Part shown: positions 42,001 to 45,000 of the stretch, piece after piece | How positions within the stretch are numbered: the first letter of the stretch is position 1 | How the letters are laid out: each line of letters starts with the position of its first letter | Assembly: GCA_021785355.1 (NCBI GenBank) | Contig: JAJYFR010000001.1 | Location: 263,096-327,095 of the forward strand | Direction of reading: 5' to 3' | Source: a bacterium | GTDB taxonomy: Bacteria; Patescibacteriota; Dojkabacteria; JAKAPS01; JAJZLI01 | Length of the DNA stretch: 64,000 nucleotides | Program-made: the position numbers

Positions 42001-45000
42001 CAAGCTCTTCATTAAATACTAAGTTTTTTATTGCATGAAGTTTGCTAAAGTTTTTGTCAATTTGTGAATAAACTTCAAATGTTGGCAATTTTGTGCCCAA
42101 ATTTAAATCTGAGATATTGAGAGATTCGATTCTTGTAGAAATTTCTGAAGCAAGCTTGTCAGATCGGTTATTTATACCAAACTCTAGAGATATTGATATA
42201 TCTGGTAGAAGTCCAATAAGAGAAGTGTCTATTAATTGTTTGGGCATAATAACAACTTTTTCCATTCCCAAAGCCTGAGCTACATAACTAATTAATTGGT
42301 TGTCTTTTGCCACTATAGCAACTCTACCTGTGTCGGTTACAGAAGTATGTATATCTATAACAAGATCAGGATTAAATTTATTTATCTCTAGCTTTATGTC
42401 CCTCGCTATGAATGCCTCAATTGTATCTTTTTTTGAAGCAAAGCTTCTATTTAAATCTTCTTCTAGGTATCGTTTATGTTTTGCAACTGCTGCAGGATGT
42501 CCAACTCTTACTAATATTTGGTTTTTGCCAGTACGATTAATTCTCCCTACAACCTTTAGACCTAAAAGTTCGTCTCCATGTATAGCAGCTACAATATATA
42601 TTTTCATTTTATTACATCATGAATTTGAGCATTAATTACTAACGTATCTGTATCTACGAAGTTAACTCCGGTGGTAGGTGATACAATTGGATCATATATA
42701 AGTTTACTGGATGCATAACAGACTGCTTCTTGATCAGTATGGATTTGCGCCAGTGACAATGTTTCTGCTGGAGTAGTTCCTCCAACCCTAGGAGTAACAT
42801 CAATCACATCTCTAACGATCTCTCCACTATCAGTAACTCCCTCTACAACATCTACACTAACTCGTCCATACCGTAAGGATAATTTTACATATTCTAAGAT
42901 TGCTTTTTTACCCAAGTCTGTTAAGTATGGTGGTATGTCAAAATATCGCTCAACCTGGGTTTTGTATACTTCTGAGGAACTGTGGAATAAGCCAAGTGTT
43001 GTACCTCCATATACCTCGCTACTGCCATGAGTTACAGTCTCCTCTCTACCAAGATAAGTAAACTCTCCAATTTTACCTAATGCTATATGACCTACCGAAA
43101 TTCGATGAAGAATTCTATCTAGATATGGCATTAAAACGCACCCAAAATTAGAGTCTTTGTTGATTTCATGAAAAACTGATAATAATTCATCTGTTGACTC
43201 TACAGTATATTGTCCTCTCCCATCCGATTCTCTAGGATCTTTAATCCTAACTCTATTCCCTCTTTTGATTTGTGCTTCAGTATATTCCTTTGCTTCTTCG
43301 AGACTTGAAGTTGCTATACCTATGGAATTAGGGTTATTAGAATATAAAACAGACTTATATCCATCTTTTAGTTCCTTTACTACTACACCATATATATAGC
43401 TATTATCAATCGGAAATATTTGTTCATCAGAAGTAATAGCTCTAGGACAAAGCTGGACATTATTATCTTTGACTACTTCTCCTAATACACTAGATATAGT
43501 TTCATTTCTTTGTCTTACATATGTCCTATATGGTTCAGGCATTGCTGATTCTGGTGATTGTACTATCATATTATTTCTTCATTAGAATTAAATAACTTTC
43601 ATATACTATTGCATTATATCTAGAGTACCAAAAAGTGTCAAATTACCGTATTGGACTCAAGAAAATAATCTGTATTTTATCTTATTTTTTCAATTTTATA
43701 TTCTATATTATTATACCTAATTTTATCTTTTTCTTTTTTACCTAGAAGTAACTCTCCTAGTGGTGATTCAATAGTAATCTTTCCAGATAAAGGATCAGGA
43801 TTATCTTTTAGTAAAGTAATTACAACTACTCTTTTTAATTTTTTTAGATATATAGTTGATCCTATTTGTACTATTCTATTAGTATTATTCATACTAATTG
43901 TATATATAACATAAATATTAAAAAATGACATTGCCATGCATAGCAAATTTTTCTTTTTTTGCTCAATTTTTATTATATATATATGAGATTATAACCTTAT
44001 ACCTTTGTATATTAATTATGAGTGTTACCATTTAAGATTATATCAGAAATTTAAAGTATGGAATTTTATTAAAGAGTAAGTTTTTTATATTTAAATCTTT
44101 TAAGTTCTTCTTCTATATCTTTATATGTTTTTCCACAAACTTTTCCTCCTGCAAGGAATTCTTCTTGAGTTACTTCTATAAGACAAAAATCTGGAATAAC
44201 AAATTTCTCTAATTCCTCAACAGTATTAAATTCAAAATCAACTAATATTAATCCTAATAAATTATTTTGAAATATATCTATTTCTGCTATATTAGATTGA
44301 TATTCAAAATAATATCTAATCTTCTCTACTCTCTTTCCTTTAATAGTTGATAATGTTTTATATTCTTCTTTATCAAGAGAAATTGTATATTCATTTTGTT
44401 TTGAAAAATCATCATTGCTCAGAGGCACTTTTTTTGTCATCTCATATTTATCAGCATTTTTTCTAATTCTGAGAGTAGGATGTTCATAGCTTTCAGGAAT
44501 ATATATATCTATTATTTCTTTATGTTTATATTCTTTAATATTATCTGGAATATATTTTGCAAGATATGTTTTTTCTAATTCTAATTGCTTCATAGATTTA
44601 ATTTATATTTGTTAATCTTGTCTAACATACTAATATATATAAATATTTAATACAAACTATAATATTTTAGAATACTCTTCATATATTTTATTTATTGCTT
44701 CATCTTCAAATTCAAACTCTCCTGTATTAGGATTCTTAAAACTGTGATCTGCTCCTTTTATTTGATTATATCTAATAAATTTAGATTTTGCATTTTTTAA
44801 GTCTTCTCTTACTTTTTCTATATTTCCAAATCTGTCATATTCTCCTTGAATTATATGTATATCACCAATAAAATTTTTTAAATTTATATATCCTATATCA
44901 TATCCTAAAACTACGATAGAATATCTGTGCATTTCTTTTCTATCTAATGTAGATAGATAATAACTTGCAATTATAGCTCCAAGTGATTTTCCAATAAATC

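Follow-up and report, generated by a model that had tools for sequence, protein, structure and literature searches.

Two short ORFs in the accessory part of this Dojkabacteria contig raise the question of what a Gre factor reduced to its C-terminal domain could do to RNA polymerase, and whether such a protein is a functional product at all. A sequence-only reading of the window (the whole 64-kb stretch of DNA analysed here) had reported two stand-alone Gre C-domain ORFs of 71 and 78 aa, and both are present: each exceeds the cut-off (26.9 bits) of the Pfam GreA_GreB C-terminal profile PF01272 (copy 1: E 1.8e-9, 37.9 bits, profile positions 3-75 of 77; copy 2: E 9.3e-15, 54.8 bits, positions 3-76 of 77). 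Neither copy matched an N-terminal Gre domain in Pfam or NCBIfam and no coiled-coil remnant was found upstream of either one in any frame, which bears out the claim that this half is missing; in the alignment both proteins begin at the boundary between the linker and the C-domain. The motif quoted in the same reading occurs in both proteins (ITIESPLGELLLGKK in copy 1, ISVSSPVGSSLIGKK in copy 2), and their proposed paralogy agrees with an identity of 39% over 49 residues by BLASTP (41% in the alignment). Scored for the features of GreA/GreB, the mini-Gre proteins have a C-domain with the Gre fold and lack the antiparallel coiled coil with its acidic tip, and they fall far under the cut-offs of the full-length NCBIfam GreA models. 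[quoted passage not shown] With the coiled coil missing, the mini-Gre proteins are expected to be devoid of transcript-cleavage stimulation.

Longer gene calls (86, 102 and 111 aa) are not credible, their starts falling within the box and promoter sequence described below. Copy 2 is monocistronic, the gene downstream being convergent, and so is copy 1 in the sister strain (contig L008), where an M20 peptidase gene lies downstream in convergent orientation. An operon of copy 1 with the downstream DUF3182 and AstE/AspA-like genes was rejected, since those genes and an IS element are missing in the sister strain. There is no full-length GreA in the 64-kb window; a 162-aa ORF (3126-3614) with a weak tblastn match to GreA is not a Gre protein.

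Table 1 Features of the mini-Gre genes, the palindromic box and their neighbours (positions in the window, except for copy 3, which lies on contig L002).
Feature	Position	Strand	Description
Mini-Gre copy 1	43677..43892	-	71 aa, Gre C-terminal domain only; ORF and PF01272 match
Mini-Gre copy 2	63462..63698	+	78 aa, Gre C-terminal domain only; ORF and PF01272 match
Third Gre-C paralogue (copy 3)	L002 16175-16477		In-frame Gre helix 2 remnant, then stop codons; no box
Box 1	43925..43948	-	ATTTGCTATGCATGGCAATGTCAT; 16-bp palindrome at 43931-43946; upstream of copy 1
Box 2	63383..63406	+	ATTTGCTATGCATAGCAATGTCAT; perfect palindrome at 63385-63400; upstream of copy 2
Extended -10, putative promoter of copy 1	43903..43911	-	TGTTATATA; 22 nt past the palindrome; read from the sequence
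Extended -10, putative promoter of copy 2	63420..63428	+	TGTTATATA; 22 nt past the palindrome; read from the sequence
Box copy	57254..57269	-	Drives genes for an acidic peptide (53 aa), a RimK-like ATP-grasp enzyme and an ABC exporter
Box copy	53299..53314	-	Drives genes for a small protein rich in Lys, Trp and Gly (67 aa) and for one of 139 aa
Box copy	49774..49789	-	Drives a long operon: 94-aa protein, S9 prolyl oligopeptidase, two methyltransferases, hydrolase, CYTH protein
XRE-family helix-turn-helix protein, 251 aa	62525..63280	-	Divergent from box 2; Pfam HTH_3 E 1.4e-8
XRE-family helix-turn-helix protein, 266 aa	57484..58284	+	Divergent from the 57254-57269 box; Pfam HTH_3 E 2.4e-7
CYTH (triphosphate tunnel metalloenzyme) protein, 174 aa	44069..44593	-	Immediately upstream of box 1

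The predicted fold is that of a Gre C-domain, as the earlier reading had expected a structure prediction to show: the AlphaFold model of copy 2 (pLDDT 88.1) superposes on the C-domains of GreA, GreB, Gfh1 and Rnk with query-normalised Foldseek TM-scores of 0.70-0.83 (0.72 for Rnk, PDB 3bmb), and its 14 best matches in the PDB are all Gre-family C-domains. The next-best fold is the trigger-factor FKBP domain, with HelD also among the matches, and a profile of the mini-Gre proteins compared with PDB sequences recovers the E. coli GreA and Gfh1 C-domains. Numbered as in copy 2, residues G11, I39, S43, P44, L49, G51 and D56 do not vary among the mini-Gre proteins, one full-length GreA from Patescibacteria and E. 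coli GreA. Every aligned mini-Gre keeps S43 and L49, the counterparts of E. coli GreA S124 and L130, and has Ser or Thr at the position of S121. These positions matter in bona fide Gre factors: S121P weakens RNA polymerase binding by GreA, S124L and L130P cut its antipause activity (S124L with binding still intact) and its C-domain contacts the beta-prime rim helices (PMC7527559); S127E, at the equivalent serine of the M. tuberculosis Gre factor, abolishes activity (PMC3132773); and RNA polymerase binding resides in the Gre C-domain (PMC4598747). That the residues most conserved in the mini-Gre proteins, including the serine of the SP motif, are those of bona fide Gre factors argues that the ancestral interaction has been retained.

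Both genes are preceded by a common element, ATTTGCTATGCAT(G/A)GCAATGTCAT, whose 21-nt core TTGCTATGCATRGCAATGTCA occurs four times in the window at one mismatch or less (0.00 expected) and whose 16-bp palindrome TTGCYATGCATRGCAA occurs five times (0.42 expected). The distance from the end of the palindrome to the extended -10 is exactly 22 nt in copies 1 and 2 and in two diverged relatives, the mini-Gre genes of contigs L021 and L022, so that all four follow the rule of the box regulon, with TTGCYATGCATRGCAA ending 21-22 nt before the -10 hexamer. Only 10 nt separate the -10 hexamer of copy 1 from its ATG and copy 1 has no Shine-Dalgarno sequence, hence its mRNA is probably near-leaderless. 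The sequence-only reading had placed each gene behind its own operator copy. One box does stand upstream of each mini-Gre gene; its position suggests another role, being centred near -42.5 and ending at -35 in putative promoters lacking a good -35 hexamer. Activator sites typically show this geometry, and the box most likely acts as one rather than as an operator, a direction of regulation that we infer from its placement.

Relatives of the same size, in part with the same upstream architecture, speak against debris. A 76-aa homologue of copy 2 (61% identity) is encoded in a Patescibacteria genome bin, and the intact 76-aa relatives (L010, P0008, P0012) share 41-62% of their residues with copy 2; of the three further contigs bearing ORFs of this size, two also have the box. 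The diverged mini-Gre genes of L021 and L022 have the same box as well as the same spacing. Copy 1 is under purifying selection between strains: the sister-strain copy is 97% identical, with five synonymous and two non-synonymous differences between the genes (dN/dS about 0.10, far from the value near 1 that the earlier reading had named as speaking against coding conservation). For copy 2 against its 61% homologue the dN/dS is about 0.6, a value made unreliable by extreme AT bias. In a rough neighbour-joining tree the box-linked proteins tend to cluster, apart from copy 3 and from full-length GreA fragments. Mini-Gre is thus a small conserved, regulated family and not debris.

Many of the other short Gre-C database hits are fragments at contig ends, and two are full-length greA genes that have been disrupted, P0050 by an in-frame stop and P0150 by a frameshift; these hits give no evidence for a wide mini-Gre family. 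A separate stand-alone protein may be P0156, on contig L047. A metagenome scan with the box pattern ATTTGCYATSCATRGCAATG returned 23 single hits, none accompanied by a mini-Gre or another island homologue; lying in high-GC contigs or inside ORFs, they are chance matches. With no further examples from the scan, very few organisms are known to carry the family, and the mini-Gre proteins belong to a small clade from a handful of related organisms with very AT-rich genomes, probably Patescibacteria. PADLOC and the phage and plasmid collections gave no matches, viral structures gave none below E 0.001, and PHROGs gave only a single chance-level hit (E 0.088); in the literature, no paper on natural C-domain-only Gre proteins was found.

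At least eight transcription units of the island, most of them peptide-modification operons, have the box at their head, and the operon driven by the box at 49774..49789 terminates just upstream of box 1. On contig L002, which runs past the end of the window, the regulon goes on for at least 9 kb beyond copy 2, with three further boxes and the third Gre-C paralogue. The two mini-Gre genes are therefore not the borders of the island, and the suggestion that they bracket the accessory region does not hold. The most likely candidates for the box-binding protein, judging from their position, are the two neighbouring XRE proteins, which share 36% identity; helix 1 of the 251-aa protein is coded in frame upstream, without a canonical start codon. 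RRNPP-type regulators (Rgg/PlcR/ComR) combine an N-terminal XRE helix-turn-helix with an all-helical, TPR-like C-terminal domain. A profile of the two XRE proteins gave no match to solved RRNPP-type regulators, and nothing informative, in the PDB, and the AlphaFold model (pLDDT 54, unreliable) has many beta strands in its C-terminal half, counter to a TPR domain.

Upstream of box 1, the CYTH protein matches PDB 2fbl and 3typ (NE1496) by sequence (E 1.9e-9). A homologue on L021 (1486-1821; tblastn, 58% identity over 112 aa), a fragment with a weak Pfam CYTH match, lies directly downstream of the mini-Gre gene at a gap of 2 nt and is apparently co-transcribed with it. A CYTH-like ORF seen by eye upstream of the L022 mini-Gre received no support from Pfam, BLASTP or PDB searches.

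With only the docking half of a Gre factor and a shared palindromic box, the mini-Gre proteins are most likely inducible blockers of the side channel of RNA polymerase. As we picture it, once the regulon is on, box-driven mini-Gre would be made from its own promoter and would dock, through the surface formed by the conserved [ST]xxSP[LVI]GxxL[IL]GKK, on the beta-prime rim helices, where the secondary channel opens. Having no coiled coil it could not reach the active site and would act as a competitive cap, keeping any full-length GreA and other channel-binding factors off the polymerase, with altered pausing, rescue of backtracked complexes and proofreading as the consequence. We hold this proposal of box-induced, stand-alone GreA C-domains competing for the channel tentatively, at somewhat under an even chance; binding to RNA polymerase and competition with GreA are suggested by the conserved C-domain residues only. 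Overexpressing only the C-domain of GreA had no toxic effect in E. coli, and earlier work cited in the same paper suggests that GreA needs both domains to bind RNA polymerase specifically (PMC7527559); an isolated C-domain may accordingly bind weakly. Nor does the window encode a full-length GreA with which mini-Gre could compete. A more specific version, in which mini-Gre would be a signal-induced channel cap sharing its control with ribosomal-peptide biosynthesis in a bacterium of reduced genome (candidate phyla radiation), evicting GreA or shielding the polymerase of the producer, is improbable as a whole.

The docking domain might instead have been repurposed as an adaptor, tethering an island factor to RNA polymerase or binding another protein or peptide through its FKBP-like fold; the partner could be the adjacent CYTH enzyme, or the role could be chaperone-like, towards the modified peptides of the island. 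A CYTH gene adjoins the copy 1-type mini-Gre in the window, in the sister strain and, at 2 nt, on L021; this adjacency was found in the copy 1 subgroup only, not near copy 2 or the L010 mini-Gre, and is unsupported on L022. Gre C-domains do dock in other architectures (a 2656-aa database protein has seven matching stretches, and HelD is among the fold matches), and the next-best fold is the trigger-factor FKBP domain. Set against this is the residue pattern, since what the mini-Gre proteins keep best, the SP motif serine included, is what bona fide Gre factors keep. We regard repurposing as unlikely, if less so than the alternatives that follow.

Protection of the producer is a further reading, with mini-Gre on the channel rim shielding RNA polymerase from a peptide that targets the channel, whether the island or a competitor produces it. 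It draws on the box shared with ribosomal-peptide-like operons (acidic precursor, ATP-grasp, ABC exporter, prolyl oligopeptidase) and on the existence of lasso peptides, microcin J25 and capistruin, that block the RNA polymerase secondary channel (PMC6347699). Nothing indicates RNA polymerase as the target of the island products, and it is not obvious that a C-domain bound to the rim would close off the channel lumen. ATP-grasp clusters like these are known for protease inhibitors, not for inhibitors of the polymerase. This makes shielding very improbable, and we give the same slight credence to the view that the genes are non-functional remnants of duplicated greA genes whose 5' halves were lost and whose ORFs survive by chance. 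Decay of that kind does occur: copy 3, which was truncated independently, retains part of helix 2 ahead of its stops and has no box, and several of the other short Gre-C hits are contig-end fragments or disrupted genes. Copies 1 and 2, by contrast, start exactly at the domain boundary with no N-terminal remnants upstream, each has its own conserved promoter architecture, and the same-size relatives of copy 2 and the dN/dS of copy 1 speak for maintained genes.

If the competitive cap proves right, eviction of GreA upon induction of the island would be a switch of global elongation and proofreading behaviour. Competition is regarded as the main way in which secondary-channel factors (GreA/B, DksA, Gfh1, Rnk, TraR) are themselves regulated, and to our knowledge all those characterised insert a coiled coil; the cap would be the first natural regulator of the channel to act purely by occupying the rim, with nothing inserted. 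A naturally selected, duplicated and inducible docking-domain-only protein would show that rim occupancy suffices to be useful and would offer a minimal tool for probing Gre competition. The locus also provides a rare, clearly delimited regulon in a Patescibacteria-like genome (palindromic box, fixed promoter geometry, XRE neighbours), in organisms whose gene regulation is, as far as we know, almost unstudied.

Among known systems, Gfh1 of Thermus and Rv3788 of M. tuberculosis are Gre paralogues without cleavage activity that rival GreA for the secondary channel (PMC4598747). Their C-domains match the mini-Gre proteins in fold and sequence, but they are two-domain proteins whose coiled coil inhibits catalysis from within the channel, whereas the mini-Gre proteins, consisting of the C-domain only, could compete at the rim alone. 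In Rnk the C-domain is likewise of the Gre type and the coiled coil stops short of the active site; Rnk still binds RNA polymerase, in competition with Gre and DksA (PMC4598747). Its NCBIfam models (NF004396, NF004548) give the mini-Gre proteins 13-26 bits against cut-offs of 109-126, through the C-domain only. We know of no Rnk in a box-controlled accessory regulon. Since Gfh1 and Rnk have each retained an N-terminal coiled coil (PMC4598747), short in Rnk and absent here, the mini-Gre proteins belong to neither class, contrary to the affinity first proposed. TraR, a secondary-channel-binding factor (PMC4598747), and lambda Orf73 are the conceptual analogue, as minimised channel binders: they are RNA polymerase reprogrammers on the 73-aa scale encoded on accessory DNA (PMC9239242), although their fold is that of the DksA family, unrelated to the Gre C-domain, and they reside on mobile elements whereas the mini-Gre proteins have no phage or plasmid relatives in the collections searched. 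Also close is the E. coli GreA/GreB C-domain engineered by Koulich et al. (1997, 1998; cited in PMC7527559), which is the same polypeptide, beginning at the end of the interdomain linker; that one is a laboratory truncation, whereas the mini-Gre genes occur in nature, have been duplicated, are conserved between organisms and stand under the control of the box.

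Two genes encoding stand-alone Gre C-terminal domains (mini-Gre copies 1 and 2) lie where the sequence-only reading had placed them (Table). Both proteins score above the curated cut-off of Pfam PF01272 (GreA/GreB C-terminal domain), covering nearly all of its 77 profile positions, and match the NCBIfam models of full-length GreA, GreB and Rnk through their C-terminal parts only, far below the cut-offs; they are 39-41% identical to each other, which upholds the paralogy already proposed. Aligned with E. coli GreA and a full-length GreA from Patescibacteria, the minis start right past the interdomain linker, and no coiled-coil remnant was found in any upstream frame of copy 1 or copy 2. 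Longer gene calls (86, 102 and 111 aa) were discarded: their starts fall inside the upstream control element and the extensions are translated box and promoter. Both proteins have the Gre-family C-domain and lack the coiled coil that defines GreA/B, Gfh1 and Rnk. They are therefore outside these classes, and the earlier likening to the Gfh1 and Rnk class does not hold for architecture, although the mini-Gre proteins may still act like an anti-Gre factor.

The copy 2 structure model (built from a 55-sequence alignment; mean pLDDT 88.1, pTM 0.70) was compared with the PDB using Foldseek. The best 14 matches were all Gre-family C-domains (GreA, Gfh1, GreB, the Nitrosomonas Gre-like protein 2pn0 and Rnk; query-normalised TM-scores 0.70-0.83), followed by HelD and the trigger-factor FKBP domain; the Gre C-terminal fold is therefore borne out for copy 2, copy 1 being assigned by homology. 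In a seven-sequence alignment (the minis, one Patescibacteria full-length GreA, and E. coli GreA in a sequence that agrees with the 1grj segment), the residues G11, I39, S43, P44, L49, G51 and D56 (numbered as in copy 2) are identical in 7/7; S43 and L49 correspond to E. coli S124 and L130, and the minis have Ser or Thr at the S121 position. In E. coli GreA, binding to RNA polymerase is weakened by S121P, antipause activity falls to <10% with S124L or L130P (binding being retained in S124L), and the beta-prime rim helices are the contact site of the globular domain (PMC7527559); S127E, at the serine of the SP motif of M. tuberculosis Gre, abolishes activity (PMC3132773). Since residues whose mutation has an effect are kept in the minis, functionally important parts of the domain are kept.

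Both genes are preceded by their own copy of the element ATTTGCTATGCAT(G/A)GCAATGTCAT, as had been claimed, which includes the 16-bp palindrome TTGCTATGCATAGCAA (the box). The window has four copies of the 21-nt core (0.00 expected) and five of the palindrome (0.42 expected); three further boxes are present on L002, the contig that overlaps the window and runs past its end. In every case, as read directly from the sequences, a -10 hexamer follows 21-22 nt after the end of the palindrome, usually with an upstream TG, and the -35 position is weak (ATGTCA or ATGCAT) and overlaps the box end. The box centre consequently lies near -42.5, where a class II activator site would classically be, as opposed to a repressor operator over the core promoter. 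As far as this geometry goes, the box would be a class II activator-type site rather than a repressor operator; of the "operator" of the sequence-only reading, the shared element stands and the repressor position does not. The diverged mini genes on contigs L021 and L022 are preceded by ATTTGCCATGCATGGCAATGCAT and ATTTGCTATCCATAGCAATGCG, respectively, both with a 22-nt spacing to a TG-extended -10; at the sequence level, the box-to-mini-gene linkage is conserved in them. On contig L010, the Illumina adapter AGATCGGAAGAG occupies the expected box place (~6680-6692), ~60 nt upstream of a mini-Gre homologue, so this contig is chimeric (an assembly join) and uninformative on the box. Copy 1 has a gap of just 10 nt between the predicted -10 hexamer and its ATG (43893-43911), with no Shine-Dalgarno sequence, and its mRNA probably has little or no leader; in copy 2 the gap is 33 nt long, AT-rich and also lacks a Shine-Dalgarno. 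The L022 homologue, unlike copies 1 and 2, has a strong AGGAGG.

The obvious candidates for box-binding proteins are the two XRE proteins (XRE251 and XRE266, named by length), whose C-terminal halves match nothing known and gave a structure model too poor for classification. An in-frame stretch ahead of the annotated ATG of XRE251 encodes helix 1 of its helix-turn-helix (63281-63355, minus strand; ..KKIIGEIIREERLKVLTNRNTP-M), and this extension has no ATG, GTG or TTG start: either a non-canonical start such as ATT is used or the protein is N-terminally truncated. The 5' end of the gene is within ~30 nt of box 2. Between the two XRE genes (58306-62496) are genes for a 742-aa histidine kinase (no adjoining response regulator), a 257-aa protein without family match and a ThiF-family enzyme.

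Features of the island and its continuation on L002
Feature	Position	Strand	Content
Mini-Gre copy 1	43677-43892	minus	MNNTNRIVQIGSTIYLKKLKRVVVITLLKDNPDPLSGKITIESPLGELLLGKKEKDKIRYNNIEYKIEKIR
Mini-Gre copy 2	63462-63698	plus	MDKNENIVRIGSFVSLKSKNRIINFILVLNDGDPIQGKISVSSPVGSSLIGKKINDIIKIKTQATEINYKIITIKNNI
Third Gre C-domain paralogue	L002 16175-16477 (beyond window end)		100 aa, TTG start
Palindrome sites	43931, 49774, 53299, 57254, 63385
XRE266	57484-58284		XRE-family helix-turn-helix, paralogue of XRE251; divergent from a box
XRE251	62525-63280		XRE-family helix-turn-helix; divergent from a box
Box-driven unit	53341-57269		53-aa acidic peptide (57042-57203), RimK-like ATP-grasp enzyme, ABC exporter
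Box-driven unit	52457-53314		67-aa Lys/Trp/Gly/Asp-rich small protein, 139-aa partner
Box-driven unit			94-aa protein, S9 prolyl oligopeptidase, two methyltransferases, hydrolase, CYTH enzyme
CYTH (triphosphate tunnel metalloenzyme) gene	44069-44593		directly upstream of box 1; PDB 2fbl, 3typ match ~2e-9
Higher-GC (0.32) segment	41003-43569		IS3-type integrase, AstE/AspA-like deacylase, DUF3182 protein

Positions 1-40 kb of the window belong to the core chromosome, with genes for leucyl-, arginyl- and Trp/Tyr-type tRNA synthetases, ribonucleotide reductase and Nramp; GC is at 20-30%, and the standard genetic code applies. Affiliation with Patescibacteria is likely because the nearest mini-protein relatives are in Patescibacteria genome bins. 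The island starts at ~41 kb and extends at least 9 kb beyond copy 2; the earlier view that the minis bracket the accessory region therefore does not hold. The acidic peptide ends in ...SPSTTYTSSQPNDNDD, the ATP-grasp enzyme (605 aa) has its RimK-like domain at the C-terminal end, and by gene content this cluster looks like ribosomal-peptide (graspetide-type) biosynthesis. The 139-aa partner has no family match; a module of box, small protein and partner, similar by eye (unscored), lies beyond the window end (L002 11543-12844). The island also holds a RelB/YafQ-type toxin-antitoxin pair and a 155-aa paralogue of the C-terminal part of the 605-aa protein, a fragment that is probably a decayed duplicate (50054-50586 and 51445-51912).

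Each mini gene is in effect monocistronic: downstream of copy 2 lies a convergent gene, and copy 1 is followed in the window by the DUF3182 and AstE/AspA-like genes and IS element of the 2.6-kb higher-GC segment. The sister strain (L008) lacks this segment and has M20 peptidase and 217-aa genes instead, the M20 gene being convergent with copy 1; the segment resembles a recent insertion or replacement beside copy 1.

That the minis are non-functional remnants is the least likely explanation for copies 1 and 2, because promoter and ORF are conserved in both. Evidence that they are maintained genes includes copy 1, which differs from the sister strain (L008/L009) at 7 nt (5 synonymous, 2 non-synonymous; dN/dS ~0.10, on small numbers), and copy 2, which is identical across all retrieved same-species contigs. 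A 76-aa stand-alone homologue on L010 (a Patescibacteria genome bin) is 61% identical to copy 2 (pairwise dN/dS ~0.6, of little weight because extreme AT bias compresses dS), and the 76-aa relatives P0008 (L021) and P0012 (L022) are 50% and 41% identical to it. A neighbour-joining tree of C-domains (~70 positions, low resolution) pairs copy 2 with the L010 protein and copy 1 with P0008, with P0012 close by, and disperses the third paralogue and other short database matches among full-length GreAs. The true mini-Gre family is small, since the other short matches from the 1.8-billion-protein search include several contig-end fragments and two disrupted full-length genes (P0050 and P0150). The third paralogue looks like an independent truncation, possibly decaying; upstream is an in-frame Gre helix 2 remnant, DNAPTEALRDKSIVYSSRNRSLLRILEKIQVID, then stop codons (L002 16175-16560), and the box is absent. 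Its neighbours are NYN and zeta-toxin genes.

Alternatively, mini-Gre may serve as an adaptor or as a binding module turned to a new use, perhaps together with the CYTH enzyme: the gene for a CYTH homologue (58% identity; L021 1486-1824) lies 2 nt downstream of the mini gene on that contig, which puts CYTH next to a copy 1-type mini gene in two organisms, in differing gene order. Adjacency was not confirmed on L022, and a functional link is possible. Another possible role is to shield the polymerase, in connection with the peptides of the island. Searches for mini relatives in phages, plasmids and viral structure sets found none, no defence-system model matched the minis, and the literature searched held no description of natural C-domain-only Gre proteins. 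Databases do contain domain-only entries under the annotation GreA/GreB family protein. A conserved regulon in a poorly understood lineage adds somewhat to the interest of the finding.

The best-supported reading, by analogy and still tentative, is that mini-Gre is an inducible competitor: once induced, it would compete for the rim of the RNA polymerase secondary channel, as an anti-Gre protein without a coiled coil. Against it, the GreA C-domain alone is harmless when overexpressed in E. coli, and in earlier work cited there both domains seem needed for specific binding (PMC7527559). No full-length GreA was found within the window. The competitor reading is favoured because the C-domain is the RNA polymerase-binding module of Gre, Gfh1 and Rv3788 displace Gre, and Rnk, with a coiled coil too short for the active site, nevertheless binds the polymerase in competition with Gre and DksA (PMC4598747). 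Rnk does have that short coiled coil, whereas the minis have none.
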